64,000 nt of DNA from a bacterium (GCA_963674695.2 CAXXGI010000002.1:480001-544000), one strand, 5' to 3'; shown: positions 9,192-64,000, counted from the stretch's first letter. The notes: generated by a model from the letters alone, not told the origin. A program made the numbers and translations.

Positions 9192-9273
9192 TGTCATCCC
9201 CGAATGATTCTATCGGGGATCCAGTCTGGAAAACACCTGGCTGGATTCCCGCTTACACCATGCGGGAATGACA
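9192..9273. repeat. REP-like palindromic element (TGTCAT...ATGACA family)
   Basis: TGTCATCCCCGAA...CGGGGATCCAG ... CTGGATTCCCGC...GCGGGAATGACA. Confidence 0.75.
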
Positions 9274-9310
9274 CGACATGAATTCAGGGCTTGTTATCCT
9301 CGGTCTGTCG

Positions 9311-45814: not shown

Positions 45815-46456
45815 CTATCTCGCAATCAAATGTACCGTGCCGCCGCGGTGGGAGAGGATTGCCTTCTTGAGGTTGGAGAAGTCCTCGGGGTTTTCGATGT
45901 AGTTCTGGTTCGAGGTGTCCACGACCAGCAGCGGGGTCTCCTCATAGGCGAGGAAGTGCCGGTTGTAGGTATCGGTGAGCTTGCGCAGATAGTCCTCGGT
46001 GATCGGGGTCTCGTATTCGACGCCGCGCTTCTTGATGCGCTGCATGAGCACGCGCGGTTCGGCCTGCAGATAGATCACGAGGTCGGGTTTTAAGAGCCGC
46101 TCGTGCAGGAGCTGGAAGACGGTGTTGTAGAGCGCCATCTCGTCGTCGCTCAAATTGATGCGCGCGAAGATCGCATCCTTGGCGAAGGTATAGTCGACGA
46201 TCGCCATCCGGTTGAACAGATCCATCTGGCGCAGGCCCAGCTGTTGCTGATAGCGGTTGAGCAGAAAGAAGAGCTGCGTCTTGAAGGCGTTGGTCTTGGG
46301 GTCCTTGTAGAACTCCGGCAGAAAGGGGTTCTTCTCCGCCGGTTCGAGCACCAGGTGCGCGTCGATCTCCTCGGAGAGCATGCGCGCCAGGGTGGTCTTT
46401 CCCGCGCCGATCGGTCCATCCACCGCAATATAATGAAGGGGCTTGGTCGATTGCAT
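45815..46456 (-). CDS. Deoxynucleoside kinase
   Basis: GPIGAGKTT P-loop, TQLFFL.NR, PDLVIYLQA, RIKKRG..YE. Confidence 0.92.
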   Translation of the reverse strand: MQSTKPLHYIAVDGPIGAGKTTLARMLSEEIDAHLVLEPAEKNPFLPEFYKDPKTNAFKTQLFFLLNRYQQQLGLRQMDLFNRMAIVDYTFAKDAIFARINLSDDEMALYNTVFQLLHERLLKPDLVIYLQAEPRVLMQRIKKRGVEYETPITEDYLRKLTDTYNRHFLAYEETPLLVVDTSNQNYIENPEDFSNLKKAILSHRGGTVHLIAR

Positions 46457-46662
46457 ATCTGGGGTCTAACAGAGCGAAAAACCTTTGTCCAGGACGGGGA
46501 AAATGCGGCATGAGGTCGTGTGCGCGTTGACGCATGTCATGTTTTTGACGCAGATGTCCTCTCGATTCGATTATCGTGATGATAAGTCGTTTTCTTTGTG
46601 AAGAAGTGGCATGTAAGTCTATATATTATAAGCATATTTTAAATTACCCCGCAAAATACACT

Positions 46663-46678
46663 TGGTACATATTTTGCT
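46663..46678 (+). promoter_or_regulatory. Sigma-54 promoter of the giant gene
   Basis: TGGTAC-ATATT-TTGCT (GG-N10-GC) in an AT-rich intergenic region. Confidence 0.62.
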
Positions 46679-46746
46679 TATAAGTCTCCTTGCTCCATGT
46701 TAGGGAAATACATGTCTGTGGATAAAAGTGTGGGAGTATAGTGTTC

Positions 46747-49700
46747 ATGCAGCTTAGCGAGCATTTCAGGAAATCGCGAGCCATTCGCATCATCGTCAGT
46801 ATTCTGACAATGGCGATGGTGAACCTGCCAATTCCGCGTCAAATCTGGGCCTCCCAGGCTACCCCACGCACGCCGCTGTATGCCCAGCACCTCAATATGC
46901 CCGGAACCTTCTCCACCCAGACGACGATCGAGAAGACGGCCGAGCCACAGACGATCGATGGCCTCTCAACGGTTGATACGGACATCAAGAAGCTCGGCCC
47001 GATTTCCACCGTGCGCGAGATCGACGCGACGCTCGTTCCCACCAAGACCGACGATCGGTATGCATTGGTTCCGATCGTCAAAGAGATCTCCAAGGGGCTC
47101 TTCGAGGCCGACAGCGATCAGTGTTCAGTCGTCATCGGAAAGAAGATCGAATTACTGGAGTGCAAGGGTTTCATCGTTGTCGATGGCAGCGAGGGCAAGG
47201 GCGAGGTCAAGCTCGCCGATCCGGATCATCTGCGAAAGATGCAGGAGGAGCTCGGCGAGCAGCTCGTGCTGCGCATCGATTTCACCGACCCCGAGACGGG
47301 CGCCGATCTTGTCGTCAGTGCGCGCGTGGAGACGGCGGCCGAGGAGCTGAGCGAAGAGTTGACCGATGGGCTCGGTGACGGCGAAGGTGAGGGCGAAGGC
47401 GAGGGGAGTGGAACACTTACGCAAGAGATCATCGACGGCGCGCCGCCGTCGGAAGAGCCTGCGGCGACGGGAGAGCCGACCGAGGGCACTGAGGCAGTGA
47501 CGGATGCGATTTCCGAGGGTGTGGGGGAGACGACGCCGGAGCAGACTGCGGAAAACACAGATACGGAAGCGCCCGACGATGCCGACGTCCCCGTCGAACC
47601 TGCCGAGACCGCGACGACCGAGAGCGGCGCGGAATCAGCCGAGACCGCACCGACATCGACCGAGCGCCCCGAGGGCGAGACGTCGACCGCCGATGCCGCA
47701 TCGGAATCAACACGCGAAGACACGCAGGCACCCCCTCCCGCCGAGAGCACTGCGGCACCGATCGCGCAGGCCGCGTCCGTTCCGCAAACGGAATCAGCGT
47801 TCGATCGTGTCAGCCGCGCGTTTGGCGAGTTCTTCGGCACGACTCCGTCATCGCCCACACCTGCGCTGACACCGACTGCGCCCATCGGTTCTACGAGCGG
47901 GACGTCCGCTTCGTCTGCCCTGCCATCGGCATCGACGGCATCTTCGATGCAGGCGGATGTCGGTCCGGCAGCATCACAGGCCGAAGTGCAGGCCGCACCG
48001 GAGCCAGAAGGGGGCACGCCGGTCTCTCCGCTGCCCGAAAACGTGGATGTCTCAGGGGGCACGGGTGCCACGTTCGGAACGCAGATCGATCCGGTTCGTG
48101 ACGTTCCCGATCTGTCCGCTTGTTCCTGCGTCGTCGGCGCACCCGACTCCGACAACGACGGCGTCTGCGATTCCTGCGACAACTGTGTCACCGTCCCTAA
48201 CGGCGATTGCATGAAGGATGCCGCGCGCTGTGACATCACCGGCGATGGCAAGGCCAACTCCTACGAGCGCACCGTCGGCAACCAGATGGACCGCGACAAC
48301 GACAAAGTCGGTGATGCGTGTGATAGCGATATCGACGGCGACGGCCTGCCCAACGATATTTTGGTTTTGCCCCAGAATCTCATCGGCGGGGCAAATTTTA
48401 AGGCGCGTATTGTTCGCAATAACGAGATCAAGGTTGTGGCCTATGATCCCATCAACAACGACGATCACGCAGACGAAGGTTTTGATTCCTATTTCCGCGT
48501 CAGCGCGTCGGCCCTGGGTCTCGATGAGTTTCTTTCCTGCTCACGAGGGGTGATTGCATGGGGAAGGAATGATCTCCCTGACAGCAATATTCCCGACTAC
48601 GTGGATATCATCGATACGAGTCTCGACGACTCCTTCAATCCGAACGATTCCCTTCCTGCGGGCAACTGGAAATCGACGCACAGCGGTTGGCGCGAATGGT
48701 ATTACAAATCGAATGCTTGCAGGGACAACAACCCCTTCGTTCCAAACGCTCTGGATGAGAGCGTTCCGGTCTATGAGAAGGCGGGCGATAATTCCACCGA
48801 TCGCCTCTCGCACTGGAAGAGCGCTTCGTTGCCGCAGTTCTATTATGTGAAGACGGGCGATGCATGCCCCGAAGGCGATGCGCGTTCATGTAGGGGAGGG
48901 GGAGATGCGGGCAGCAAATGTATCCGTGGCAACTGTTACAATGTCTGGCGCATACCCGACACCGAATTTGCGGTCTATTCCAAGCAGAATGTCCCTCGCG
49001 AGATCGTCGATGTGCCGGTGGAGGAGGATGTCGAGTTTAAAGATTTTGTGAGCGATATTTATTATGCTCGGTACGAAAATATGCAGCGGTCGTATTTTTC
49101 GAGCGTGGAATCATGCATTGAAGCGAAGGTGGAGGATCTCGTTCCCTGCTCATCCGATTTCAATTGGAGCGTTCCCGGATGCAGCAACTTTGACTGTCTG
49201 GGTGAGAAATTCTCTGCAGTCGATATAGGCGTTACGACTTCAGCGGAACTGGCGGATCGCTCTTTAGATTGTAGTTCCTATCCCAGCATGCTGAGGGTCT
49301 GTGCATGTGGTGCACGCCAATCTTTTTGGTATAACTGTGTAGGTGCCGTTTCGCATAATATCTATAGCGGGCAATCGAGCTTTGGTCCAGATGACGCGTG
49401 TCTCGATAGCAGGTTGCTGTACTGGCTTTGGGATTTCCAGAGCAGAAACAGTAGCTTTGAACCGAGTACATGCGGTGAGGGCGGTCTTGAAAGTAGGTTG
49501 AGGACGGAACTCAATACAAAGCGCGCTTTGATTCGTGAGAAATGGAACGAATGTGAGGCGGCTTGCACTCCAGATGGTGAATGGGCCAAAACGTGTGAAG
49601 ATGCATGGTGCCAAGATCAACGCGCGAAACTGAAATCAGATCCGTCAATACGCGAGGAGTGCGAGGAGGAGCTGCGAGAGAATAGGCTGTTTGCCCTTCG

Positions 49701-52700
49701 TGAGTGGACCGCCCAAGCCCTTCGAACGCCGTTCAGCATCAGTCCCTATATGGCGTGGGCTGGATGGGATCGCCTTGGATATTACTGGGTCCCCTTCGAC
49801 TGGGATCTCGACGGCGTCTGGGAGGTCGATGTCGATGTCAACGGCGACGGGAACGTCGATGCGGAAGACGAGGTTGTGTGGCAGAGGCGAGAAGTCGATT
49901 TCAAATTAGTCGTAGGCAGCAATCACTATATCGATATCTGTCTCGGTATGAAGGAGAATCCTCCGGACTCGCCATATTCTCTCCAAAAGTGGTGTCCCGA
50001 CATCTACGAGATCGAGAGGTTGAAATCCTCCGGCGCCATATCCTGTTCGATCGACAAACTCGGTGCCTCGGATCCGTTTGATCGGGGTTGTTGTAACGAT
50101 CTCAAGTCCTACATGGATGAGAACCGCGATCATCGCATCCTGCGCTGGATCTATATTCGCTACTGTGCAGGTATGCCGCGCCTGGAAGAGGGTAATACAT
50201 GCGCCTCTTTGCCCGCCACCATCGGCTGTGCCGCTGGCAAGTATGTTCGTCCTCTCCCCCCTGAGGAGATCAATGAGGGTGAGCCGATTCGGCCGCTGCT
50301 CTCCGACTATCTGCGCAATATCGAAAATGCATTCGATTTTCAGAATCCGAAGAACGATATCTACGTCGGCCCCGACCCGGATGGCGACGACATCCAGAAC
50401 GCATCCGATGTGAGCGCTCCCAGGTGTCGCAATAGTGTGAGCCAGAGTAGCTCGGGCGTGTGGCCGCTGGCCGCCCGGTATTGTTCGACGAACTGCAACA
50501 GAGAGAATATCGCCGAGAAGGGTCCCGTCTTCGATGGACGCGGCAGCGATGACATCTCTTATGACGCCATGCTGCCCGCGGATCGCCGTCACAACTTCTG
50601 CACCGAGTTCTGTCCGATTCCGCCCAGCGGGGAGAGTTACGACGCTTGGGCGCGCGAGCAACAAGGCTCTCTGCTGAGGGCGGGCGGCCTCTGCGAGGAT
50701 CACAGCGATTGCGGTGATGGGGCACGGTGCGTCGGGGAAGAGGGAAACAAAACCTGCAAAAATATCTTCAAGGAGACGGACCTCGTCGACATGGAGTGCA
50801 GCCGTATGCCGCGCGAGGGCTGGCCGTATCGTAGGTGTGCCCTCCAGAGTAATGGCGGGATCATCCTCGAGGATATGAATGATGGAGTATGCTCGTCGGG
50901 CCGTACGCAGGTCGATTGCTATCCTTTAGAACTCGACTCGACTCTCTGCGGTGAGAGGGTGACGGTGAAAAACTTGAGCACACCTTTCGGGATGCAGCTC
51001 ATCCATTGCTACGACCCGAATCGTCTGCCGGCTGACTGCATCGTCCCCGACCTCACGGCCGACTTCTGCCGTCGCAACTTCGAACGGACGATGGATCTCA
51101 CATACGCCCAGAAGTTCGGTTGTTTCGATAACTGTCCCGATCACTACAATCCTGACCAGAGGGATGCCGACGGTAACGGCATAGGCGATGCGTGCGACTC
51201 GACGCAGGGTGGAGTGGTTGCTAGCCAGACATGTTCAGAGAGCTTCCCGCCGTACTGGGTCGATCTCGACGGGGATGGCTTCGGCGATATCTGTGATAAC
51301 TGCCCCGCGCGCAAACAGGACGGCCAGGCCGATGCCGATGCCGACGGCATCGGCGATGCGTGCGACAACTGTGATGACGAACGCAACCCGCTCCAGAAAG
51401 ACCGCGATTGCAACATGGTGGGCGATGCGTGCGACCAGTATTGTTCCGGACCGGACGATACCTGCATGGGCGATCGGGATCTGCTCCGCGGAACAGATTT
51501 CATCCGCGGCTATTGCAAGGATTCGAAGCATCTCTACTGCGTCGAGAGTGCCTGCCGCCGCTGCGCGCCGCACCAGGTCTTGGCGGGCAGTGTCTGTATC
51601 GATCGCAACGCTTGCAATGGCGATGACGCAACGATCGAGTGCGGTGATTTCGGTGATGAAAAGATGCTCTGGGACGGCCGTGCCTGCACGCCGAAGGCGG
51701 GGTTTGCCTCCGAGATCAATGCCATCATGACCGACCGCGGCCTGCAGTGTCGCTGCCCCGATGCCGATGAAGTCTTCACGCCAGGTGAAGATGGCCAGCC
51801 TGGTTCATGCGGCACGGCTTGTACCCTCGCCGCTGCCGATTGCACGACGCGCGAGTGGAGCTGGCAGAACGATGTTCCCTACACCACCTTCTCTGCGTGC
51901 AAGGTTCCCGGCTTCGATGAAGATGCCTGTGCGTGTGCCATGAAAGACGCCGATAACGGCACGCCGTGCGGAGAGCGCGGATGGTGTGTCGGCGGGTCTT
52001 GCACCAATAATCCTGAAGACTGTGACGAGTGTGATGAGCCAGGCGGTTGTGTTGCTAACGGCCTCGTGCGCTGCTCCGATGGTTCCTGTGTGACTTCATC
52101 CGATCAGTGCGCCTGCGGCAGCGATGCCAACTGCGCGGCGAACGAGGAATGCAAAAACGGTCTCTGCCAAACGCGGCCGTGTGTAATCGATGCAAATTGT
52201 CTGCTGGGACAAATTTGTCAGGAGGAGACGAACGAACGCGGGGTCCAGGTCTCGGAGTGTCAGTATCGCACCTGCAGTGAAGGGGAACCATGTCCCGAGG
52301 GTTCCACCTGCGAGAGCGGGCAGTGCCTTCCGCAGGAGTGCCGTCGCTCCAGCGATTGTCCGACGGGGCTCATCTGCAGCGATCGTATCTGTACCAGCCC
52401 CAGCACGACCTGTACCATCGATGCCGACTGCTTCGACAACAATGAATGTACCGCCGACACCTGCAGCGATGCGGGCGTTTGCCCCTACGACGCCGTCACT
52501 GCTGGTACGTCCTGTGAAGGCGACGCGCTCTGTTCAGAAGACCTGCTGAGCCGCCTGGTCTATGTGTGTCAGGACAAGACCTGTCGCAGCACGCCGAACC
52601 CTTGCGACGGGCAGCAGCTCTGCGCACCGGCCACCGGCGCGTGTTCGAATGCGTGCGACCTCAATGCGGTCGAGGGCGAAGAGTGTGCCGCCGATGAGCG

Positions 52701-55700
52701 CTGCATCGTCGAGTCTGTCGAAGCGGCCGATGGCAGTCGGACCCAGCAGAGCCTCTGCGTCAAGGTGATCGATCAGCCCGAGGAGATGGCCGGGTTCGAC
52801 CTCGACTTCAGCATGATCGGCGCGCAGGGAACGAACGCCGTCTATTTTGATCCCGAGGATAAACGCTATAGCGAATCATTCGTCGGCGTCTCCGGCGGCG
52901 AGCACGAAGCGAGCGCGACGATCCTGGCCACGGGACTCTATGGCGATGGTCCGATTGCGCAGTTGGTGCCGGCCGATGCGCCGCTCGAACAGCTTGTCTC
53001 CGGGTGGGGATTGTTCAGGAATGATTCCCACCTCTTCCTCAGCCGAAGCGTCGTCGCCACTCCCGGCGAAGAGCTGATGGCCTATGCCTGGTTGCGCGAC
53101 GATCGCGGTGCGGGGCTTTCCCTTCCGAACGTCGGTTTTGTTGTTCCCGGAAGCGACGGCGTTGTCTCCGCGCAACAGGTGGTCTTCGATGAGAAGCCGA
53201 TCGCCGGCCTCTACCGCGCCCGCGTTTCGATTGCGGCGTCGGGTTCAATCTGTGCCTCCGTCGCTGGAGCTGAGAGCGATCTGTGTACGACGATCACCGT
53301 CGGTGGAGAACTCCCCGAAGCCGAAGTTGTAGGGACTTCCTTCGCGCGCATCGGTGCCTTTGATCGGTTAACGCTCATCTGGCCCGACTGGCAACAGGCG
53401 CCGCCAGAGGCCAAACTCACCGTCTATCGGATCGTTCGCTGCGCCCTGCCCGAGGGCGGCGCGATGCCATCAAATGATATTGAGATCGATACGGATGCTT
53501 CGCTCGGCGAGAATAGCATTACGTTTCAGGGCCTCGGCGATCCTCAAGGGAGCGATGGAATATTCACCTTCACGCCGCCGGTCGAACAAAATTGTTCCTT
53601 TGGTCCGACCTACGGTGATGTCACGTTGCCTGGTTTCACCGATATACAGACCGTCGATTTTACGATCGCCATCGCACGCCTCTGCAAGGATCAGCACGTC
53701 ATTGTCGATGAGCGCGGTGAGCAGATCAATTCCCTCATGATCCGCCCGGTGCATCACGACCAGGATATCCTGGATCTGACTCCCTTCTGCAGTGCAGATG
53801 AGAATCAGGATGGGGAGGAGGAGGGATGGACGGGACGCAGATACTGCCGGTATGAAGGACAGACCTGCGACGATGTTGAGGCCTTGCGTCGCTATCGGTG
53901 TTCGACTCCCGAAGACATGATCGACATCCGCTATCAGATGCGGCGCCTGCGCATCATGATCTACGGTTCTGCGGGTGAACCCTACGATGTGACCGATCAG
54001 GTCACCTGTACAGCCGCGGATGACGCCATCGTGCGCTTCGATCCGCGCTGGCCCTGCATGGCGCTGGTGCGCTATCGCGATGGAGAGTCCGAGTCGGCGC
54101 GGGCCGATCTCATGATCAACTTCGGCGGCGATGAGGTGACGAAGAGCGATTTCTTCACGGTCAACAATCCGAATGATATGGACGGCATCTACGTCGATCG
54201 CCTCGACATCCGCATCGGCGCGTCAGTTGCGCTTGAAGAGGATCCGGAACCGCTTCGAGCCTATACACCGATCGATGCGGTGGCATCGGTCACCAACTTC
54301 ACCGAGACGATCCACCCTGATGGCGTTCCGGTGAAACTCTGGGTCGTGCCCGACGCGGAGCGTTCGCCGGACGTTGCCGAATGGGAGGTCACCCCGCTCA
54401 TCGAGCTGGGCGTCGTCGATGTAGAGGCGGGGCGTAGCTATCAGGACGAGATTGCTCTCCTGCAGAGCCAGGAGCTCAATATCTTCCGGTACGAGAACGA
54501 TCCGCAGCGCGGTCCGGTGATCAAGGTGAGCCCGATCGGCGACATGCTCTACACCGGCGGTGCGGTCGCGCGCGAATTCAAGACGGTGCAGGCCCCCTAC
54601 AACTTCAAGTGGGGCACGGGGATCATCAGCGCCAACCTCGGCACCGGAAAACTCATCGCCTTCGAGGCCCCCGAGTGGGAGGAGGGCGAGACCGACTTCG
54701 GTACGGAGCAGATGCTCGGCGCGTCGAGAAAGGTGCATCTCTTCTACAGGCCGGCCGAAGGTGCGGAGGATGATGAGACGCAGGTCTATCTGGAATTTAT
54801 CAGTCCGAAGGCCTCCAGCGCGCGCCTCTTTGGAAAACTCAAACTCACGAACCTGCCACCCGCCGACTGGACGATCACGCCTTCGCGCGTGCTCCCCTGG
54901 GCGATGATCACTGCCGGTGAGCACATCGGCTCGCTTATCACCGAGGGAACACTCGAAGCGCTCGGGCAGACCGACTTTGATCTCGAAATGCTCCTTGCAG
55001 GTGATGAAGCGGCGGCGCGTGCAGCCATCTTGCAAGCGTTTCCGGATAAAACGAATGAGGAACGCGAAGCGATTCAACGTGACCTCAAGGCCTATGGCCA
55101 GGCCATGATCGATGCCCTCGACGCCATGCGCATCTTGGAGGAGCAGGGTGTCGACGGCGATGACTCCAGCCCGATCTTCAATATATCGCTCAAAAGCTGG
55201 CTTGTAGAGCCTGTGATGTCTGAGGTGGATGGGGTCGAAGTTGTTGAGACCCCCGGCGTTCCTCTCAATCGCGATACGTTCTCGCGCCTCTTTCCCGAAT
55301 CGAACGGACATTGTGCCCCCTACTTCATGCCCTTCCTGCGCGACATTCTCCTGGTCATGGCGCCGCTCTTCGGCACGCCGCTCGATGCACGCATCGCCGA
55401 GCGTCTGAGTCGTTTTGAGATCTGCGTCAATCCGGTCAACGAGGATGATCAATGTAACGTCGAGGATGGCTGCGCAGGCGATGCCGAGTGCGTCGAGGTG
55501 GAAGACGGCGAAGGATATTGTGTCGAGGTCTGCCCAGCCGAAACGTTCTGGAACGGCTGGGAGTGCGAGTCGGGCGAGCCGACTTCATGTACGGAGGATG
55601 AGGCGTGCATCGCCGTCGGTCTGGAATACTGTGAAGGCGGCATCTGCCGCGAATGTCCTCCGGGGCAGTATCGTCAGAATGGGATGTGCGTCACCTGCGA

Positions 55701-58700
55701 GGGAGTTACCCCGCAGCCGCCTGAGTGCACCGACGATCGCATGTGTACGCTCGATGCCGAGTGCAGCGATGATGACATCTGTACGAACGACACCTGCGGT
55801 CAGTCCTATCCGGGCTACTGCGACGGTTCGGTTCAGATTCCTCGTTGTGGAAATGACTGCGACGATGAACACCCATGCGGCAATGGCCTCGTCTGCACCG
55901 GCGGCCAGTGCATTCCCACCGATATCCCCTGCGACGCCAGCGCTGACTGCGACGATGGGAATGCCTGCACCACCGATGTCTGTGCTGAAGATGGCACCTG
56001 CGCCTATACCGAGACCACCTGTCCGGAGGGTGAGAGCTGCAACCGGGTCACCGGCCAATGTGCAGTGAGTTGCCCTGTGGGTGAGATCTATCACGAGGCC
56101 GATCATACGTGCAGTCACCTCGTCGATGGCGCGCTCGTCGAATTTTCAGCGACGGCCGGCACGGGTCAGTGGAGCGGCCAGACGACATCAGTCGGCGTTG
56201 GCGCCTATGAAGGCCCGATCGTCGGCATGACCATTCCGGCTGCGCTTACCATTCCCGGCAAGAGCGTCTCCGCTCTCTCCGGCGGCGTGATCGGCAGCGC
56301 GGCGGTGACGATTCCAAACGTGCCCGCAAACATCCGCCTCCTGCTCTCTCGTGAAGAGGTCTTTGAAGAGGATCGCAGTCTCGGTCGCGATGCCGCGCGG
56401 CGCCTGAAGGCCTATGCCTTCGTGACCGACGCAAACGGCCAGCCGGTCGAGGGCTTGACCGACGTTGTTTTTACAAAGAACGGGACGCCGCTTCAAAAGA
56501 CGCAGGGTCAGGATCAGCGCCAGGGCCTCTACTATCAGCTCATCGATGGGATCGATGGGGCGAGCTCCATCGCGGTGAGCGCGGGATCCGTTGCGGCAGC
56601 GCCGCAGGAGGTTGCGTTCGTTTCGGATCCGGATGTTGTGTCGCTTCCGAACGATTGGGATGTGTTGCTCGACCTTCCGCGCCGCACGCTCTATCGGGGC
56701 CAGGAGTTTACGATCCCTGTGCGCGTGAATACCGGTGATCAGTTTGGTGTCATGGCGTTCAACTTCCCCGTCGCCTTCGATGCTGATGCCTTTGAATTCG
56801 TTCGCGTTGAAAAGGGGAGCGGCGGCGCATACCTCATGGACCTGCAGCAGCCGACTGCGCAGGGGGGACAGGTTGTCGTCAACGGGGCCAAGGATCCGCA
56901 AAAGGTTGCGACGCTGGGCGATGATGTGGAACTCATTCGTCTCGTCTTCCGCGTGCAGGATGATGAAGCGACGGTGGTCGCATCCCCACGCCTCTTCACC
57001 GCTACGGCGAATCAGCTCTATTCGATGCAGGTCATCCCGGGCCAGGGCAATCCCAACCATGGAAATGGAAAGGTGATGCAGGTCCTGGATCGCACGGGGA
57101 TTTCGAATGCTGGCGTGGTCGTCGTGGAGCCCGAGGCGTATCTGGGCTTGGCGGCTTATATCGAGGACAACGATTGGGTCGACTATCGGCAGGTCAACCA
57201 GGCACGCGTACCTCCAGCGAGCGTGGTATGGATTAAGGGTGTCAGTACGCGCACGCAGGCGCCGACGGATCTGGTGGCCAACGGCGTTGTTTCGATTGCG
57301 AGTCTCACGGGCGAACCGGAAAACGCGGGCCTCGCCTTTGCGCCGGAAGGTGCCGGCCTGGGTATCAGCCTGGCACCGAATGTCCACAGCTCTCAATCGT
57401 TTGCCGTTCGTCATGGTACATCCGAGATCGAAGTACCCATCAGTGTCACCGCGATTTCGTCGTCCGATCTCCAATTCGAACCGGCATCGAGGAGCATCAC
57501 CCTTGGTCGTCTAGCTGAGGGAATCTATGAGCCGATTCAGATTCGGGCAAAGGCGGAAAAGAATGGAACGACATATGACGTCACCGATGTGATCTCCTGT
57601 CAGGCCACAGGCCCCGCGACGGTTCACGATGGGTGCATCATCGAACCGTCGGCCATCGGTCCGATCTCCCTTGTCCTTGCAGAAGATCAATCATTTGCCC
57701 TCACGGTGGCCGATAGCCCGGTGACGATCGAAGGTGATCTCAATGTCGCGATCGTCGGCTCTCTGGATGTGCAAAAGGTAAACGGCACGGCGGTTGGCGA
57801 TGAACCCATCGAGGTCGCAGGGGGCGTTGCGCGCGTGACGGCAGAAGCGACGAATATCTTCGGCGCGAAGGTTGCCTCTCCCGTTCGCGTGACGGCCAAT
57901 TTCTCGTCCGGTCGCACGGTGGATGTGACGCCGATCGTGGCCGGTTCGCTCGAGCTTCGCGGTCAGGGTGAAGCGGTGCCTTCACTCGCTCCGGTTTCGG
58001 GCGAGCCCGGAATGTTCGAAGTGGTGGCACCAGGGATCAGTTTTATCGATGCCCGCTTCGGGGACGCGATGGGCACGGGCGTGGCGGTGGTCGACCTGGG
58101 TGAGGCGAGCTTCGAGGTGACTCCGATGGCGGCAGCGAGTCACGGGTGCAGTCCCGCTGATGCCGAGGATCGCTCCTGCAAGCTTACTCCTGCAGATGAC
58201 TGGGCACGGCCCATTCGCGACTATGGCGCGACCATCGATTTTACAGCGCAACTTACGTATGAAGCGGATCCGGAGCATCCCTTCGATGTGACGCAGGGCG
58301 CTGCATTCGAGGTCGAGGCGATCGATGGGAATCACATCGTCGTTGAGGCGGTCGCTGGCGTGAATGGTCGCTTTGCGGTCAGCGCCGGTGCCGCGCATGG
58401 CGCGAGTCTTGTCACAGCGAGCTATGCGGGGATGACCTCCTCGTGGATCGTTTTGGTGACGGGGATCGACGAGTTCCGCATCGATCTCTTCGAGGACTTC
58501 GATCCGCTCACGACCGACGATCCGCGTTTCGTTGCATTTACGGGCGATCCCGTCGCGGACGCCGACTTTCAGTTGATCCAGGATATCGATTACCAACGCG
58601 GTCGCGCCAAGGTGATGGGGCGCTGGACCGATGGGTCGTGGATGAATCTGACGCGCGAACCGGGCGCGGTGAATCTGGTTTCACTCACCAGTGAAGTCGT

Positions 58701-61700
58701 TGGCATTCCCATCGCCTGGACGACGGCTGCGGAGTATGTCCTGGTTCACCCGCAGGCCGATGGCAGCGGTGACCTGGTCGTGTCGGTGCCCACGGCACCC
58801 GATGCGCCTACGGTGAGAAAGGCCGTGAGCGCGGGTGGAACGATTGCCGTGAATGCGATCGCGATCCTGCCCGGCGGCGGCGCGAACCGCGAGCCGATCG
58901 ATGCCTTTGACGGAACGATCTCGGCCATCAAAGATGCCTCCGCGGACCTGCGCGTCGGCATCAGGATGGCCGATGACACGCGCTTCCTCGCGGCCAAGGA
59001 CGGTGCACAGACGGTGACAGGCGAGACGCAATCGCTGCTCTCATTCGCCCGGAGCGATATTCCCTTTGCGAATGATTCGGACGATCGCTCCATGGCCGTC
59101 GATGTGACCGAGGGCGCGGGCGATCCGAACGGCGTCGTCGTCCGCGCCAATGGTGCGGCGAATATCACGGTCTCGGCGATCGGCAATGCCACGACGGGTG
59201 AGACGCCCTACGCCATCAACCTTCTGCCTGCAATCGGGGATGTTGACCTGGGTGTCGATATCGTCAATGGCATCGACATCGGTCGTTTCATTCCGGTGTT
59301 GGCCTCGGGGGGAAGAAAGACCGTCGAAGTCTTCGTCAACACGGGTGCGGCGCAGCTCAAAGGATATGATTTTGAGTTCTTCTATGATGCGCGGGTCTTC
59401 AGCATTGAGGAGATCAGACCAAATATTACGGGTGTCTTTACGGGTAACCGTCTCGAACCCGAGGGCGCCACGGGTGATGAATCCGGCCACCTGCTCATCA
59501 ACGGCATCGCCGATCCAGCGGTTGGGCCGGGGCGCGTCAAGATCGCCGAATTCGATATTCGTGCGGTCAAAAGTGACGTCAAGATAACGCACGTGACGGG
59601 ATTTGTGAATGCCCTGAGCGATGTGAGCGGTGCGCCGATAGGTACCGCCGGCCGGCATGCCATCGTTGCGGGCGACGGCTACGTCGATCCGGTCAATGTG
59701 CCGCGCGGCAACCTCGCTCCGGAAGACGATTCCTTCGATATCAACGACATCATCATGGTTGCCGAGTTCGACCAGGGGGCTCGCCCATTCGATGACGAGC
59801 AGCAGGCAGCGGCCGACTATTCGCACTCCGGTCTGCCCATCGACAGCCTCGATGTGGCGAAGGGTTCCGAGCTGCTCGCACTCCTCAATCACTTCGTCGA
59901 TCTTGAAGCGACTGTAAATGAAGACGGAACCGCACGGCTCTCCTTCGCGATCATCAATCGCTATGGCCAGTTTGTGGCGGACGCACAGTATGTGCGCTTG
60001 CGCCTCATCGTAGGTGGTGAAGGGACGTTTGAGATCGTCCAGCCGGCAGAGGACGATGGCACCTATTTGGCGGTGGTTGATGGTGATCGGTATGTCTTGA
60101 ATATTCGAAATGCCGAACCGGGTGCCCGGGCGCAGATCGATGCGATGCTCGAGGTGGTCGATACGAACGATCCCGATCGCGTGACGATCAACGCGATCAA
60201 TTTCGGCGTCGTGCAGTTTACAAATACGCCTGGCTGCGATGTCGATTCCGATTGTCCGCAGGAACCGGAGATAATGGTCTGTATCGACGGCAGTTGTGAA
60301 GAACCAATCCCATGTGAAAACGATGATGAATGTAACGGCGCCGGCTACGATTTCTGCGACGAGATCGAAGGCGTCTGCCGTTCCTGCCCCGAGGGCGAGT
60401 TCTTCGATGGAGAGGCCTGTGTTCCGGGTACGGGCTGCGACACCGATCTCGACTGTCCCGATGATCAGGTCTGTTACGAGGACGCCTGCGTCGTTCCGGT
60501 CGAATGCTCCTCTGCCGAGACCGTGAATGCCCCCTGCACCGATGACAATCCCTGCACCGAGAACGATAAATGCCAGGCGGACAACTCGTGCGTCGGAACG
60601 CCTGTCACCTGCCAAGCTGAAAACGGATGTCAGGTGGCAGCCAATGACGGTGCGTGCGACGAGACGTTCGGGTGTACATACGTCTCCGACTGTCCCGACG
60701 AGAACCAAATCTGCACGCCGGCAGGACAGTGCGAAGAACCGCAGGCCTGCGTGGTCGGTGAGTCCGGTCAGACCTGTCAGCCGGATCCGGAAGACATCTG
60801 CATGGTCGGCGAGTGCCTCGATGATGGAACATGCGGCGAAGCGAGTGCCATGCACGATGGGACCGAATGCGGCGAGAACGCCCTCTGTCAGGGCGGCGAG
60901 TGCCGCGAGCGTTGCACGATCGATGTCGAGTGCGACGACGGCCTCTTCTGCAACGGGACCGAGAGCTGTGCCGATGGTCTGTGCGCGGCGGGCACGCCGG
61001 TCGCGTGCAACGGCGATCAGATCTGCAACGAGATCACCGATGCGTGTGAGGAGCCGATCGATTGTACCGGCGATGATGGCTGTCAGCCCGAGGAAGATGC
61101 GGTTTGTTACGCCGGCAGCTGTGTGGAGATGACGGGCGAACCGCTCTCAGGCCACTGCCAGTTCGATGCAGTTTCGGATGGGACGGAGTGCATGACGGCA
61201 ACGATCGCCGCGGGCCAGTGTCTGGCCGGCAACTGCCGTCCGGTCTGCCAGACGCAGGGCGACTGCCCCGACGAGAGCGATCACTGTCTCGAGGGCGTCT
61301 GCGATGCGTGTCCGGAAGGAACGACCTGGTATCAGACCGGTGCCGATACCGGCGAATGCCGCGTGATCGTCGATGGCTGTACAGCCGATACGATCGGCGC
61401 GGCGTGTGATGATACAAAAATTTGCACCGTGAATGATGTTTGTCAGGCGGACGGCATCACCTGTGCGGGTACAGCTTTCTCTTGTGATGATGGCCTCGGT
61501 TGCACCACGAACAATACCTGCGATCCGACCCTCGGATGTACCTATGTCTCTCTCTGCGATGCGGATGAGCTCTGTCTCGCAACGGGTACTGCACCGAACG
61601 GCCAGTGCGTGCCCACGGTTCTGGATTGTAACGGTCAGGCGATAGGAAGCACCTGCGCGATCGAGGACGATCGCTGCCGCGTCGGCGCATGCGTCGTCGA

Positions 61701-64000
61701 AGGGGAAGCGGCATCCTGCGGCGAGCCCTTCGCGGCGTTTGCGGATGGCACCGCTTGCGGCGAAGGCGCTTACTGCCTGAATGGCGAATGCCGCGAGCGC
61801 TGCACGAGCGCTGCCGAGTGCGACGATGGCCTCTTCTGTAACGGAGCAGAAACATGCGGCGCCGACGGTTTCTGCGCAGCGGGTTCGCCGGCATGTGATG
61901 CGACGACCGAGCGCTGCGATGAGGTGAACGCGCGCTGCGTGAGCCTTGTGTGCGGAAACAACGAAGACTGTGCGGCGAACGAGGAATGCATCGAAGGTCT
62001 CTGCACGCCGCGCGAACTGTCGTGCGAAGGGAACGACGACTGCACGTCATTCAGCGGTCTCTGCGGTATCGGGTTCTGTTCGGAGAGTAATCTCTGCGGC
62101 AGCGATGTCTTCGCCGATGGCACTGCCTGCACGCGCGAGGATGGTCGGCCGGGCACTTGCTCCAGCGGCATCTGCACCATCGGGACGGACTGTGACGCAA
62201 CGAGCTGTCTGATCGACGATGCTTGTGTGGCCGAGAATACTCGCAATCCGGAGAACGACTGCGAGATCTGCACGCCGGATCAAAACGCATTTGGATGGAC
62301 GGTCGTGGACAGCTTCCAGGAATGTACCCTCGACGGTTCAACGGGCGAGTGTCGTGCGGGACAGTGTTTCATCCTGTGCCAGATCGATGAGGATTGCGGC
62401 GAGGGCGTGCTCTGTCGCGGTGGAGTCTGTATCACCGCCGGAACGGCCGAGGGGCAGTTTGTCCAATTCAGCGGCGATGCGAATGAGCACGCCTTCTGGG
62501 CGGGCGATCTGGATGAGGCCAGTGCGACCTACGGCGGCACGATCGTCGGCCCGTTTGCGCAGCGTGCATCTCAGTCGGTCACCACGCGCGTGGTCGACGC
62601 CGCCGGTTCCGGCGATGGCTTCGGGCAGCTCGTCGGCACGAAGTCGGCAGCGCGTGCGCTTCCCGAGACGGCTGCGAGCGCAGAGTTCGTCGTGCCGATC
62701 CAGCAGCTCTTCTCCGATGCACGCCCGGGCGGCGATCCTGAAAACCATGGCCGCACGCTCTACGCCTACATGATGCCGCGCGATGACGAGGGTCGCCCGA
62801 TCGTCGCTTCGCCGACGAATGTGAACTTTGCCCTGAGAAATGGTGATACGAGTATCTCCACGTTGACGAGCGGTACGGTGAGGAATGGCCCTGTTCGCTA
62901 TGCGAGCCAGGCCCTTGCCAACGATCTGCTCCAAAACCAGGAGGGGCAGCGCTCGCTTGTCGCACGTTATAACAGTGCGGATGTCGGTGGCGCGATGGAA
63001 TCGATCACGATCGTTGCCGATCAGGGGCATGCGCCGCTCGCGCCACAAACGATTCTGCTCGACCTGCCGCGCCGCGAACTCGCGCCAAACAAGACCTTCT
63101 GGATTGACGTGCGCGTGAACACCGATCCGGATCTGCTCAGCGGCATCACGCTCTTCGTCTTCGATATCGATTTCACGAATACGCCCTTTGCCTATGCGGG
63201 TGAGGTACAAAAGGGTGCAGATGGTCAGGCTTTTGGCGAACCGATCGTCACGACGGATGCCGATCGTATCAACGTGAAGCTGACACCGCCGTCGATCGTC
63301 GCGGGCGGCGCCGACCAGCTCTACGCGCGTGTGAAGGCGCGTGTGCGCGCGAACGCATCGACGCCGCAGACGGCGGGGATTTCCGGTGCGCTCGTGACCC
63401 TCAAGGATCAGTTGAGTGCTGGCTTCGAAGGGCGCGAGATTCCGGCGGTGGCTGCTAACGGTCACGGCGGGAATACGATGGCCGTCGTCGATTACAGTGC
63501 GATCGTCGGTTCCATCGGGTATCTCTCTCGCGAGTTGCTCATCGATCGCCAGTGGGTGGCCGAAGAAACAGCACAGACATCGACGGCGAATCGCATCGAT
63601 GTCTTCGCCAACGGTGGCAATACGATTTCGCAAGCAGCGGTGCCGATGCAGATCATCTCCGGCGGCGATGTCGTCGAGATCGACGGGAATGCGCTCTCCG
63701 TGAAGGCGAGTGCGGCCAAGGGGATGCACGATGTCGCGGTGAACGTCCTGCGCGACGGTGCGGTTGCGACGGCGAACCTCCCCGCGCGCGTCATGCGCTT
63801 CCCGACCGCCGCGCTCGAACTGTTGGGAGGACCGCGCAAGACGGACCGGCGTTTGGAATGGATCGAGAATAGCAATTTCTACCAGCGCACACAGATTCGC
63901 GTTGGCATGACCGTCGACGGTGTCGAATACGACTTCACCGACAGCATCGATTGTGCCGATATCGAACAGGTGCCGGAGAAACTCGCTCTCGATGCAAACT
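46747..64000 (+). CDS. Giant secreted surface protein, >5,750 aa, 3'-truncated by the window: TSP3 repeats, Cys-rich repeat blocks, Ig-like, cohesin-like and dockerin-like modules
   Basis: Read codon by codon in frame +1: no stop from 46726 to 64000. GGGAG RBS, then MQLSEHFRKSRAIRIIVSILTMAMVNLPIPRQIWA signal peptide (alternative GTG start 46741). Absent from the ORF track, presumably because there is no stop in the window. Confidence 0.93.
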   Translation, partial: MQLSEHFRKSRAIRIIVSILTMAMVNLPIPRQIWASQATPRTPLYAQHLNMPGTFSTQTTIEKTAEPQTIDGLSTVDTDIKKLGPISTVREIDATLVPTKTDDRYALVPIVKEISKGLFEADSDQCSVVIGKKIELLECKGFIVVDGSEGKGEVKLADPDHLRKMQEELGEQLVLRIDFTDPETGADLVVSARVETAAEELSEELTDGLGDGEGEGEGEGSGTLTQEIIDGAPPSEEPAATGEPTEGTEAVTDAISEGVGETTPEQTAENTDTEAPDDADVPVEPAETATTESGAESAETAPTSTERPEGETSTADAASESTREDTQAPPPAESTAAPIAQAASVPQTESAFDRVSRAFGEFFGTTPSSPTPALTPTAPIGSTSGTSASSALPSASTASSMQADVGPAASQAEVQAAPEPEGGTPVSPLPENVDVSGGTGATFGTQIDPVRDVPDLSACSCVVGAPDSDNDGVCDSCDNCVTVPNGDCMKDAARCDITGDGKANSYERTVGNQMDRDNDKVGDACDSDIDGDGLPNDILVLPQNLIGGANFKARIVRNNEIKVVAYDPINNDDHADEGFDSYFRVSASALGLDEFLSCSRGVIAWGRNDLPDSNIPDYVDIIDTSLDDSFNPNDSLPAGNWKSTHSGWREWYYKSNACRDNNPFVPNALDESVPVYEKAGDNSTDRLSHWKSASLPQFYYVKTGDACPEGDARSCRGGGDAGSKCIRGNCYNVWRIPDTEFAVYSKQNVPREIVDVPVEEDVEFKDFVSDIYYARYENMQRSYFSSVESCIEAKVEDLVPCSSDFNWSVPGCSNFDCLGEKFSAVDIGVTTSAELADRSLDCSSYPSMLRVCACGARQSFWYNCVGAVSHNIYSGQSSFGPDDACLDSRLLYWLWDFQSRNSSFEPSTCGEGGLESRLRTELNTKRALIREKWNECEAACTPDGEWAKTCEDAWCQDQRAKLKSDPSIREECEEELRENRLFALREWTAQALRTPFSISPYMAWAGWDRLGYYWVPFDWDLDGVWEVDVDVNGDGNVDAEDEVVWQRREVDFKLVVGSNHYIDICLGMKENPPDSPYSLQKWCPDIYEIERLKSSGAISCSIDKLGASDPFDRGCCNDLKSYMDENRDHRILRWIYIRYCAGMPRLEEGNTCASLPATIGCAAGKYVRPLPPEEINEGEPIRPLLSDYLRNIENAFDFQNPKNDIYVGPDPDGDDIQNASDVSAPRCRNSVSQSSSGVWPLAARYCSTNCNRENIAEKGPVFDGRGSDDISYDAMLPADRRHNFCTEFCPIPPSGESYDAWAREQQGSLLRAGGLCEDHSDCGDGARCVGEEGNKTCKNIFKETDLVDMECSRMPREGWPYRRCALQSNGGIILEDMNDGVCSSGRTQVDCYPLELDSTLCGERVTVKNLSTPFGMQLIHCYDPNRLPADCIVPDLTADFCRRNFERTMDLTYAQKFGCFDNCPDHYNPDQRDADGNGIGDACDSTQGGVVASQTCSESFPPYWVDLDGDGFGDICDNCPARKQDGQADADADGIGDACDNCDDERNPLQKDRDCNMVGDACDQYCSGPDDTCMGDRDLLRGTDFIRGYCKDSKHLYCVESACRRCAPHQVLAGSVCIDRNACNGDDATIECGDFGDEKMLWDGRACTPKAGFASEINAIMTDRGLQCRCPDADEVFTPGEDGQPGSCGTACTLAAADCTTREWSWQNDVPYTTFSACKVPGFDEDACACAMKDADNGTPCGERGWCVGGSCTNNPEDCDECDEPGGCVANGLVRCSDGSCVTSSDQCACGSDANCAANEECKNGLCQTRPCVIDANCLLGQICQEETNERGVQVSECQYRTCSEGEPCPEGSTCESGQCLPQECRRSSDCPTGLICSDRICTSPSTTCTIDADCFDNNECTADTCSDAGVCPYDAVTAGTSCEGDALCSEDLLSRLVYVCQDKTCRSTPNPCDGQQLCAPATGACSNACDLNAVEGEECAADERCIVESVEAADGSRTQQSLCVKVIDQPEEMAGFDLDFSMIGAQGTNAVYFDPEDKRYSESFVGVSGGEHEASATILATGLYGDGPIAQLVPADAPLEQLVSGWGLFRNDSHLFLSRSVVATPGEELMAYAWLRDDRGAGLSLPNVGFVVPGSDGVVSAQQVVFDEKPIAGLYRARVSIAASGSICASVAGAESDLCTTITVGGELPEAEVVGTSFARIGAFDRLTLIWPDWQQAPPEAKLTVYRIVRCALPEGGAMPSNDIEIDTDASLGENSITFQGLGDPQGSDGIFTFTPPVEQNCSFGPTYGDVTLPGFTDIQTVDFTIAIARLCKDQHVIVDERGEQINSLMIRPVHHDQDILDLTPFCSADENQDGEEEGWTGRRYCRYEGQTCDDVEALRRYRCSTPEDMIDIRYQMRRLRIMIYGSAGEPYDVTDQVTCTAADDAIVRFDPRWPCMALVRYRDGESESARADLMINFGGDEVTKSDFFTVNNPNDMDGIYVDRLDIRIGASVALEEDPEPLRAYTPIDAVASVTNFTETIHPDGVPVKLWVVPDAERSPDVAEWEVTPLIELGVVDVEAGRSYQDEIALLQSQELNIFRYENDPQRGPVIKVSPIGDMLYTGGAVAREFKTVQAPYNFKWGTGIISANLGTGKLIAFEAPEWEEGETDFGTEQMLGASRKVHLFYRPAEGAEDDETQVYLEFISPKASSARLFGKLKLTNLPPADWTITPSRVLPWAMITAGEHIGSLITEGTLEALGQTDFDLEMLLAGDEAAARAAILQAFPDKTNEEREAIQRDLKAYGQAMIDALDAMRILEEQGVDGDDSSPIFNISLKSWLVEPVMSEVDGVEVVETPGVPLNRDTFSRLFPESNGHCAPYFMPFLRDILLVMAPLFGTPLDARIAERLSRFEICVNPVNEDDQCNVEDGCAGDAECVEVEDGEGYCVEVCPAETFWNGWECESGEPTSCTEDEACIAVGLEYCEGGICRECPPGQYRQNGMCVTCEGVTPQPPECTDDRMCTLDAECSDDDICTNDTCGQSYPGYCDGSVQIPRCGNDCDDEHPCGNGLVCTGGQCIPTDIPCDASADCDDGNACTTDVCAEDGTCAYTETTCPEGESCNRVTGQCAVSCPVGEIYHEADHTCSHLVDGALVEFSATAGTGQWSGQTTSVGVGAYEGPIVGMTIPAALTIPGKSVSALSGGVIGSAAVTIPNVPANIRLLLSREEVFEEDRSLGRDAARRLKAYAFVTDANGQPVEGLTDVVFTKNGTPLQKTQGQDQRQGLYYQLIDGIDGASSIAVSAGSVAAAPQEVAFVSDPDVVSLPNDWDVLLDLPRRTLYRGQEFTIPVRVNTGDQFGVMAFNFPVAFDADAFEFVRVEKGSGGAYLMDLQQPTAQGGQVVVNGAKDPQKVATLGDDVELIRLVFRVQDDEATVVASPRLFTATANQLYSMQVIPGQGNPNHGNGKVMQVLDRTGISNAGVVVVEPEAYLGLAAYIEDNDWVDYRQVNQARVPPASVVWIKGVSTRTQAPTDLVANGVVSIASLTGEPENAGLAFAPEGAGLGISLAPNVHSSQSFAVRHGTSEIEVPISVTAISSSDLQFEPASRSITLGRLAEGIYEPIQIRAKAEKNGTTYDVTDVISCQATGPATVHDGCIIEPSAIGPISLVLAEDQSFALTVADSPVTIEGDLNVAIVGSLDVQKVNGTAVGDEPIEVAGGVARVTAEATNIFGAKVASPVRVTANFSSGRTVDVTPIVAGSLELRGQGEAVPSLAPVSGEPGMFEVVAPGISFIDARFGDAMGTGVAVVDLGEASFEVTPMAAASHGCSPADAEDRSCKLTPADDWARPIRDYGATIDFTAQLTYEADPEHPFDVTQGAAFEVEAIDGNHIVVEAVAGVNGRFAVSAGAAHGASLVTASYAGMTSSWIVLVTGIDEFRIDLFEDFDPLTTDDPRFVAFTGDPVADADFQLIQDIDYQRGRAKVMGRWTDGSWMNLTREPGAVNLVSLTSEVVGIPIAWTTAAEYVLVHPQADGSGDLVVSVPTAPDAPTVRKAVSAGGTIAVNAIAILPGGGANREPIDAFDGTISAIKDASADLRVGIRMADDTRFLAAKDGAQTVTGETQSLLSFARSDIPFANDSDDRSMAVDVTEGAGDPNGVVVRANGAANITVSAIGNATTGETPYAINLLPAIGDVDLGVDIVNGIDIGRFIPVLASGGRKTVEVFVNTGAAQLKGYDFEFFYDARVFSIEEIRPNITGVFTGNRLEPEGATGDESGHLLINGIADPAVGPGRVKIAEFDIRAVKSDVKITHVTGFVNALSDVSGAPIGTAGRHAIVAGDGYVDPVNVPRGNLAPEDDSFDINDIIMVAEFDQGARPFDDEQQAAADYSHSGLPIDSLDVAKGSELLALLNHFVDLEATVNEDGTARLSFAIINRYGQFVADAQYVRLRLIVGGEGTFEIVQPAEDDGTYLAVVDGDRYVLNIRNAEPGARAQIDAMLEVVDTNDPDRVTINAINFGVVQFTNTPGCDVDSDCPQEPEIMVCIDGSCEEPIPCENDDECNGAGYDFCDEIEGVCRSCPEGEFFDGEACVPGTGCDTDLDCPDDQVCYEDACVVPVECSSAETVNAPCTDDNPCTENDKCQADNSCVGTPVTCQAENGCQVAANDGACDETFGCTYVSDCPDENQICTPAGQCEEPQACVVGESGQTCQPDPEDICMVGECLDDGTCGEASAMHDGTECGENALCQGGECRERCTIDVECDDGLFCNGTESCADGLCAAGTPVACNGDQICNEITDACEEPIDCTGDDGCQPEEDAVCYAGSCVEMTGEPLSGHCQFDAVSDGTECMTATIAAGQCLAGNCRPVCQTQGDCPDESDHCLEGVCDACPEGTTWYQTGADTGECRVIVDGCTADTIGAACDDTKICTVNDVCQADGITCAGTAFSCDDGLGCTTNNTCDPTLGCTYVSLCDADELCLATGTAPNGQCVPTVLDCNGQAIGSTCAIEDDRCRVGACVVEGEAASCGEPFAAFADGTACGEGAYCLNGECRERCTSAAECDDGLFCNGAETCGADGFCAAGSPACDATTERCDEVNARCVSLVCGNNEDCAANEECIEGLCTPRELSCEGNDDCTSFSGLCGIGFCSESNLCGSDVFADGTACTREDGRPGTCSSGICTIGTDCDATSCLIDDACVAENTRNPENDCEICTPDQNAFGWTVVDSFQECTLDGSTGECRAGQCFILCQIDEDCGEGVLCRGGVCITAGTAEGQFVQFSGDANEHAFWAGDLDEASATYGGTIVGPFAQRASQSVTTRVVDAAGSGDGFGQLVGTKSAARALPETAASAEFVVPIQQLFSDARPGGDPENHGRTLYAYMMPRDDEGRPIVASPTNVNFALRNGDTSISTLTSGTVRNGPVRYASQALANDLLQNQEGQRSLVARYNSADVGGAMESITIVADQGHAPLAPQTILLDLPRRELAPNKTFWIDVRVNTDPDLLSGITLFVFDIDFTNTPFAYAGEVQKGADGQAFGEPIVTTDADRINVKLTPPSIVAGGADQLYARVKARVRANASTPQTAGISGALVTLKDQLSAGFEGREIPAVAANGHGGNTMAVVDYSAIVGSIGYLSRELLIDRQWVAEETAQTSTANRIDVFANGGNTISQAAVPMQIISGGDVVEIDGNALSVKASAAKGMHDVAVNVLRDGAVATANLPARVMRFPTAALELLGGPRKTDRRLEWIENSNFYQRTQIRVGMTVDGVEYDFTDSIDCADIEQVPEKLALDAN

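Follow-up and report, generated by a model that had tools for sequence, protein, structure and literature searches.

A giant bacterial protein with repeated cohesin, bacterial Ig and dockerin units related to the TMEM132 ectodomain

The 64,000-nucleotide stretch of bacterial DNA analysed here (GCA_963674695.2 CAXXGI010000002.1:480001-544000; hereafter the window) holds the 5' part of a single open reading frame (ORF) that begins at 46741 on the plus strand, stays open through the window end and encodes 12,808 amino acids (aa), 5,753 of them inside the window; its stop side lies 21 kb further on, at window coordinate 85167 (C2:565167). We find that the encoded giant protein is a bacterial form of the TMEM132/coherin module and is neither a TMEM132 nor a cellulosome. 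Profile comparisons indicate, with high confidence, that its repeated unit corresponds to the module of coherin-type cadherins and, through its first five domains, to the TMEM132 ectodomain. Since the unit is found in a bacterium, this block of domains is not confined to animals and their relatives.

The repeated unit and its relation to TMEM132

The giant ORF comprises five full units (U1-U5, ~1,300-1,500 aa each) and one partial unit (U0), with Cys-rich spacers between them. A full unit begins with a CR-like domain and cohesin-1, continues with six bacterial Ig (BIG) domains and closes with cohesin-2, a dockerin and an Ig domain. Along the ORF, Cys-poor blocks corresponding to U1 (aa ~3140-4470), U2 (~5235-6712), U3 (~7100-8632), U4 (~8915-10405) and U5 (~10935-12482) alternate with the spacers, and the five blocks align end to end (BLASTP E down to 4e-56) at 20-27% pairwise identity over ~960 columns. 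U0, all of U1 and the start of U2 lie inside the window, U3-U5 beyond it. An earlier, sequence-only reading of the window had proposed three homologous units, marked by motifs at 53080, 56410 and 62761 and at 53932, 57526 and 63880, together with cohesin-like starts at 56665, 59320 and 63055 and a dockerin-like segment with motifs at 59707 and 59800. All of these motifs are found at those positions and in frame within the one ORF, and the repeats are real, but they number five full copies and a partial one. The first of the proposed three (53080/53932) is U0, which is homologous yet resembles only the CR-like domain and BIG2-BIG3 (29.0 bits versus 1.8 for the best of 200 shuffles) and in which family profiles find neither cohesin nor dockerin.

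For U1, AlphaFold2 models of aa 3300-3910 (32 rows, pLDDT 85) and aa 4040-4445 (36 rows, pLDDT 79) were compared with solved structures, and 60 segments of the giant protein were scanned with Pfam. Among the U1 pieces Pfam recognizes cohesin-1 only, missing cohesin-2, the dockerin and the TMEM132 domains; across the units, U1 cohesin-1 and the U3 dockerin are above their cut-offs, and the remaining copies score lower or go undetected. In the models, cohesin-1 matches 2vo8 (Z 13.6, root-mean-square deviation (rmsd) 2.7, 133 aligned), cohesin-2 matches 3kcp (Z 13.2, rmsd 2.2, 130 aligned; its Foldseek list is headed by cohesins) and the dockerin matches 2ccl_B (Z 9.5, rmsd 1.3 Å, 61 of 62 residues), and the dockerin family alignment matches solved dockerins at E 2e-8. 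The models thus support a PF00963 (Cohesin) beta-sandwich for both cohesins and, for the dockerin, the duplicated Ca-loop/helix with short linking helix of PF00404 (dockerin type I). These are the folds that had been read from the sequence, and neither unrelated sandwiches nor a dockerin without paired Ca-loop/helix was found. The two cohesins are duplicates of each other (HHalign 99.3%). The BIG model matches Leptospira LigA (Z 11.5, rmsd 10.8, 173 aligned), and the CR-like domain is weakly Big_1/invasin-like (ESM Atlas Big_1/Invasin_D3 clusters at 0.91). A Foldseek search with a 611-aa U1 model returned generic multi-Ig proteins only and was uninformative, and the solved-structure matches to U1 include no TMEM132 entry.

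The TMEM132 ectodomain (PF23481, PF23039, PF16070, PF23486, PF23487; PMC6030884) shares with the unit a cohesin and three BIG domains in the same order, preceded by a CR-like domain that corresponds by position. In the giant protein the block is longer by a further three BIG domains, another cohesin, a dockerin and a last Ig domain, and it is fivefold and bacterial. The reference used for comparison consisted of 12 aligned teleost TMEM132 proteins out of 120 listed, a set of low diversity. A profile of 12 Myxococcota-type units matched this fish reference over BIG1-3 in order at 93.4 bits (best of 200 shuffles 2.4), and HHalign gave 98.7% (E 2e-16); the corresponding values for 16 units of the giant protein's own class were 13.7 bits (best shuffle 0.8) and 61%. 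With 27 units of its phylum taken from a joint alignment, the HHalign comparison with fish TMEM132C ran from cohesin-1 to BIG3 over 460 columns and reached 97.4% (E 9e-12). A profile of only the five units of the giant protein does not reliably detect TMEM132, giving 7.6 bits in a shifted register and 2% in HHalign; homologs are needed to show the link. BIG4-6 and cohesin-2 gave no match to TMEM132, and the similarity is therefore not a generic Ig likeness.

From the other direction, U1-U5 reach 68-124 bits with a profile built from 79 eukaryote-side units (best shuffle 0.9), which does not match U0, and the bacterial profile spans eukaryotic units over their whole ~1,100 aa, with scores of about 350-525 bits. 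Ig_TMEM132_4th (PF16070) is above its cut-off on four of 23 bacterial units from elsewhere (best E 7e-14), one of which also matches the sixth TMEM132 domain (E 2e-4). In the ESM Atlas, the stretch of U1 from cohesin-1 to BIG4 first finds a eukaryotic cluster in which 68% of the members carry PF16070 (score 0.95, 195 of 256 features; weak alone, recognition 2256). Considered domain by domain, the three tandem BIG domains that are the fourth to sixth of TMEM132 are present in order, via homologs. The cohesin stands at the place of the third TMEM132 domain by its fold and lies inside the 460-column alignment, an isolated cohesin-1 giving a non-significant 0.2-0.3%. For the second TMEM132 domain, the bacterial CR-like profile falls in the right place at 1.6% (E 0.03) and the eukaryote-side units at 64%, and PF23481 matches one bacterial unit at E 0.023.

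The cysteines of the TMEM132 BIG1 disulfide are found in 2 and 5 of the 27 own-phylum units and those of the BIG2-3 pair in none, compared with 22, 21, 12 and 12 of 26 units from other bacteria and 76-79 of 79 on the eukaryote side. The C-terminus of the giant protein has no membrane helix followed by a cytoplasmic tail with PP1 and WIRS motifs, and its Pfam scans gave no match to TMEM132_N or TMEM132_C. Lacking helix, tail and family disulfides, the giant protein is, as judged from its sequence, related to TMEM132 without being a TMEM132. The bacterial relative of TMEM132-like proteins suspected by the sequence-only reading is thus a relative of the ectodomain and not a family member, and the TMEM132-type architecture it saw holds more strongly than proposed, the whole unit being collinear with eukaryotic cadherin/TMEM132-domain proteins.

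That the likeness is an artefact, through a mis-binned eukaryotic gene or a chance resemblance of generic Ig sandwiches, is hardly credible, and this explanation is largely refuted. Mis-binning does occur in the family, in that P0307, labelled as a Rhodobacteraceae metagenome-assembled genome, has EGF and tyrosine-phosphatase domains next to the unit and looks like a receptor phosphatase of a eukaryote that was mis-binned. The giant gene, however, is a 38-kb intronless ORF with genome-like GC on a 907-kb contig, its neighbours are ordinary bacterial genes of housekeeping type (names read from translations), and the genome (3.03 Mb, 3 contigs) is 100% complete and 0.85% contaminated. Homologs lie on a 9.3-Mb chromosome and a 1.2-Mb contig, and both the ordered similarity over ~1,100 columns and the failure of BIG4-6 and cohesin-2 to match TMEM132 are at odds with chance.

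Cohesin-dockerin pairs as possible clasps

We propose, with moderate confidence and partly on the strength of the models, that the giant protein is a surface adhesin whose own Ca-dependent clasps cross-link it. A signal-like N-terminus, thrombospondin type-3 (TSP3) repeats, Cys-rich spacers and the lack of catalytic families suggest export and adhesion: the protein would be secreted via its N-terminal signal, and its C-terminal Gly-Cys-Ser-Cys tail might keep it at the surface. In each unit, about ten beta-sandwich domains and a dockerin would make up a rod, as modelled for most of U1, and disulfide-rich spacers would join the rods. The Ca-loaded dockerin would most likely bind cohesin-2 of another unit or chain, because hardly any free linker separates it from the cohesin-2 to which it is fused; in U1 the cohesin-2 match stops at model residue 281 and the dockerin match starts at 282, so that the folds abut. 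Through five self-complementary plug-socket pairs, the chains would then be cross-linked into a mesh that depends on Ca and serves cell-cell or cell-surface attachment.

Both cohesins and the dockerin are retained in all five full units, where cohesin-2 is the best conserved part (0.29), and mean identity between bacteria and eukaryotes is 0.28 for cohesin-2 and 0.27 for the dockerin, compared with 0.17-0.22 for the other parts. Co-folding of U1 cohesin-2 and U1 dockerin with calcium gave a score of 0.59 (best of three controls 0.01), with contacts agreeing to at least 91% between runs and partner pLDDT of at least 83. This is weak support: 116 of the 157 solved pairs and 2 of the 215 mismatched ones pass the mark, but only 18 of the 157, and both mismatches, do so at 0.60 or under. 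Self-polymerisation, which the sequence-only reading had raised, is plausible, its computed support being this weak pass.

The linker between cohesin-2 and dockerin has a median of 17 aa on the bacterial side, counted from inside the last cohesin strand, and of 51 aa on the eukaryote side. A furin-like site occurs in it in 58 of 72 eukaryote-side units and in none of 52 on the bacterial side, and 70 of the 72 have a dibasic pair; such a site between the two partners is expected if the pair re-joins non-covalently. These counts leave out one of 53 bacterial units, which has no dockerin, and 7 of 79 eukaryote-side units, and they include related, non-independent proteins and three identical row pairs. 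The polybasic furin/kexin-like site is often doubled, as in P0014, P0028, P0036 and P0053.

A clasp confined to one chain, in which the dockerin would bind the neighbouring cohesin-2 or the cohesin-1 of the next unit and act in folding or stiffening the filament and as a force-bearing latch, with no cross-linking of chains, is doubtful in our view. Cohesin-2 and dockerin are always adjacent and co-conserved, the long cleavable linker of eukaryotes would permit such docking in cis, and the co-folding result does not separate cis from trans, but the short bacterial linkers and the abutting folds of U1 speak for binding in trans. It is unlikely, too, that there is no clasp now and that cohesins and dockerins persist as Ca-stiffened stalk domains of a fast-evolving lineage that binds elsewhere, through the N-terminal region or U0. 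The low identity between units, the near-loss of the family disulfides in the own phylum (0-5 of 27), the degenerate Ca loops of U1 and U4 and the missing cohesin and dockerin of U0 would fit a stalk; the conservation of cohesin-2, the retention of both partners in every full unit and the close fit of the U1 dockerin model to a solved dockerin would not.

Several points weigh against the cross-linked adhesin. The weak co-folding pass may only mirror likeness to the many solved cohesin-dockerin complexes. The dockerins of U1 and U4 have Ca-loop insertions, and only one of the five (the U3 copy) is above the Pfam cut-off. The tail is without a membrane helix, which leaves surface anchoring unexplained, and that a short linker forbids cis binding is an assumption that we make from general cohesin-dockerin geometry. 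Within the own phylum (one class, 93 genomes) the whole-unit profile finds the unit in 8 genomes and the C-terminal profile in 11, two of them marginal, so that the unit is dispensable or often unassembled.

With ten cohesin-fold domains of type-I-like fold on one chain, the giant protein might instead be a cellulosome-like scaffold recruiting separate dockerin-tagged enzymes or effectors, a reading that we consider very improbable. Dockerin and cohesin profiles built without its own units recover all five dockerins (one at only E 16) and the cohesins, and among 25,453 six-frame ORFs they match only the giant ORF, apart from one half-length dockerin-like sequence at E 0.34. A Pfam dockerin search of the genome likewise gave one partial match outside the giant ORF, at E 0.09. 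There is no other full dockerin in this complete genome and therefore no evident cargo, and the Pfam scans of the giant protein detected no glycoside hydrolase, carbohydrate-binding module (CBM) or other carbohydrate-active family. Of the two suggestions made from the sequence, the non-cellulosomal nature of the protein agrees with this census and the docking of dockerin-tagged cargo finds no support in it. The cellulosomal type I cohesin-dockerin pairs, the Clostridium perfringens GH modules and Archaeoglobus fulgidus 2xdh have the same folds, but here plug and sockets are on one chain; neither the dockerin-tagged enzymes of a scaffoldin system in the genome nor CBM or catalytic domains in the Pfam scans were found.

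Giant proteins of dockerin type have been described in Omnitrophota (bioRxiv 10.1101/2023.11.21.568195). In the part of that preprint available, they resemble the present protein in giant size, in dockerins with thrombospondin type-3 repeats and in a proposed attachment role, and differ in having many dockerins, discoidin, DUF1080 and membrane and SecA-like parts, none of which appears in our Pfam scans; the present protein has true cohesin/BIG units, and TMEM132 is mentioned 0 times in the same part of the text.

Distribution and history of the unit

A search with the five-unit profile returned 244 of 1.84 billion representatives at E <=0.001, and the 150 matches listed include bacterial giants and eukaryotic proteins. 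Pfam scans of relatives (21, then 12) showed that the eukaryotic ones bear cadherin and TMEM132 domains. Names were obtained for few of 30 proteins (Cymbomonas, 3; Pavlovales, 1; one EukProt entry), and the remaining eukaryote-side proteins are placed by tree position and domain context. The unit is present in Myxococcota-type genomes, and cadherin-bearing, chlorophyte and haptophyte proteins have it with its domains in the same order. The coherin, lefftyrin and hedgling cadherins of sponges and choanoflagellates (PMC6030884, accessible part) are the nearest described systems: the whole ~1,100-aa unit is collinear, in tandem, in the cadherin-bearing P0028, P0034 and P0048, and the repeated TMEM132-like core with cohesin and dockerin, a coherin-type feature, is present in the giant protein. 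Unlike these cadherins, the giant protein has Cys-rich spacers and is without a furin-like site between cohesin-2 and dockerin, and no cadherin family was above cut-off in its scanned segments.

In 185,579 GTDB genomes scanned by motif, 21 loci were found, of which 19 are real, in records mostly of Myxococcales, Myxococcota or Deltaproteobacteria; the other two, L043 and L048, are chance matches in oxidoreductase-like ORFs. In the phylum of these relatives, PF16070 is above cut-off in 7 of 301 sampled genomes, the centre genome having been picked for bearing the unit, versus none of 14 control genomes. Two proteins with a single unit stand out for their other domains: P0072, a eukaryotic polycystin-1-like protein with REJ, GPS and a membrane helix, and P0038, a bacterial-looking protein with bacterial cadherin-like domains, encoded on a 1.5-Mb contig.

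Trees of the units (132 rows with FastTree; 40 rows with IQ-TREE under LG+G4) cover the unit-bearing proteins outside TMEM132 itself and sort the units into a bacterial group A, a bacterial group B and the eukaryotes. Group A contains the giant protein's own phylum, some Myxococcota-type units and one protein that by reading is probably Patescibacteria-like; group B contains the other Myxococcota-type units. A single clade (99/99) holds sixteen of the 17 eukaryote rows, and P0072 is placed with group B (100/99), apart from the other eukaryotes, so its unit may possibly represent a separate transfer. For rooting, each half of the unit was rooted by the other (30 units, 269 columns). Group B and the eukaryotes then form a supported clade in both halves (99/97 and 99/96), with the root among group A. 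When all bacteria plus P0072 were forced together, the approximately unbiased (AU) test rejected the tree for the N-half (p 0.037) and not for the C-half (p 0.097). Groups A and B were named after the tree was seen, no mixture model was used and group A has long branches; a bacteria-to-eukaryote direction is favoured by these sequence trees, not settled.

The cohesin/Ig/dockerin block may thus be bacterial in origin. We tentatively suggest a fuller history, to which we attach less confidence than to the homology itself, in which the TMEM132/coherin module arose in bacteria as a self-complementary cohesin-dockerin rod and passed from a Myxococcota-related lineage to early eukaryotes, with at least one further transfer, into a polycystin-1-like protein. 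A furin-type cut would then have been gained between cohesin-2 and dockerin, and truncation to the first five domains would have given the animal TMEM132; the giant protein would be a fivefold amplified bacterial form that polymerises via its clasps. Myxobacterial genes in eukaryotes have precedents (PMC13012113; PMC3131387), and the unit is a further candidate among the eukaryotic genes that may have come from myxobacteria.

In the accessible part of PMC6030884, the five-domain TMEM132 architecture is placed in early holozoans and in coherins, lefftyrins and hedglings, and the binding target of the TMEM132 cohesin is left unsaid because vertebrates have no dockerin; cohesin-1 is kept in TMEM132 without one. 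The same part mentions no bacterial full architecture, and its supplement text (legends) contains 'bacteri' and 'dockerin' 0 times. Our search, with subscription papers mostly outside its reach, found no report of a bacterial form of the TMEM132 module; Pfam matches on such bacterial proteins already stand unremarked in annotation tables. The early-holozoan history of the architecture changes now that the longer module is seen complete in bacteria, a chlorophyte and a haptophyte. TMEM132 becomes the front half of an older unit in which the second cohesin is the dockerin-paired one, and the intronless bacterial domains can be used for measuring binding, calcium dependence and rupture force.

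Layout of the ORF and its genome

Features of the giant ORF in window coordinates
Feature	Coordinates	Strand	Basis
5' part of 12,808-aa ORF; U0, U1, start of U2	46741..64000	+	ORF and unit alignment
Signal-peptide-like N-terminus, basic then hydrophobic	46741..46854	+	read from sequence
N-terminal region, in part thrombospondin type-3 Ca-binding and Cys-rich repeats	46855..52800	+	Pfam TSP_3 28.8 bits, cut-off 25
U0: CR-like 52849-53238, BIG2-BIG3 53929-54393	52849..54393	+	profile versus shuffles; Ig_TMEM132_4th E 0.0047, under cut-off
Cys-rich spacer 1	55258..56130	+	Cys density; weak LDL-A match under cut-off
U1 CR-like Ig domain with 56410 motif, position of TMEM132 second domain	56158..56640	+	Pfam Big_1 E 0.003, under cut-off
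U1 cohesin-1	56647..57135	+	Pfam Cohesin 31.3 bits, cut-off 24.1; model match to 2vo8
U1 BIG1-BIG3, collinear with TMEM132 domains 4-6, approximate boundaries	57136..58110	+	profile/HHalign; LigB E 0.008
U1 BIG4-BIG6, ancient duplicate of BIG1-BIG3	58111..59220	+	HHalign 99.6%, E 1e-23 between triplets
U1 cohesin-2 with conserved leader motif	59230..59700	+	family profile E 6e-20; model
U1 dockerin, directly after cohesin-2, both Ca loops, one-residue insertion	59701..59892	+	three-helix model
U1 terminal Ig-like beta domain, lower model confidence	59893..60150	+	model; position kept in homologs
Cys-rich spacer 2, about 14% Cys	60151..62445	+	Cys density; sub-cut-off Cys-repeat families
Start of U2: CR-like, cohesin-1 (about 63046-63495), BIG1, start of BIG2	62446..64000	+	BLASTP; cohesin-1 profile E 2e-8

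The giant ORF can start at GTG 46741 or ATG 46747, and its N-terminal region also has a partial NCBIfam MtsC match (E 1.7e-16), far under the family cut-off. A contig from a public run carries 46000-64000 whole and without differences, and may be the source of the same DNA rather than independent. Compared with the window, a contig of run X3 has, near its end, 14 listed substitutions and two in-frame 3-base deletions at 53870-53964, a dense variable patch inside U0.

Beyond the window, the C-terminus is Cys-rich and ends in a Gly5-Cys-Ser-Cys tail, with no hydrophobic membrane helix, and its final 474 aa match no NCBIfam family. We do not read the C-terminal CxxCH as heme-binding, as the closest homolog, P0001, is without the His. 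The Gly-rich Cys-x-Cys tag is at the C-terminal end in the giant protein and in P0001 and just after the signal peptide in seven homologous giants (the homologs compared being L058, L059, L060, P0001, P0002, P0005, P0007 and P0019). In MYXO-CTERM signals a membrane helix and a basic tail come after a Gly-Gly-Cys motif; in the giant protein the motif is present, and helix and basic tail are absent. The tag looks like the beginning of a MYXO-CTERM-like signal from which the membrane helix is missing, and it may be movable and serve in processing or lipidation. The full pattern of Gly-Gly-Cys, hydrophobic helix and basic tail stands at the end of ten other ORFs in the genome, 35864-37348 (minus strand) of the window among them, which suggests a MYXO-CTERM-like sorting system. 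The genome also contains five Cys-poor ORFs of 2,279-3,797 aa whose N-termini are acidic and show no evident signal and whose C-terminal tails are rich in Met; three of them are clustered, and the ORFs lie at C1:243777-280363, C2:669781-678489 and C3:265748-272584.

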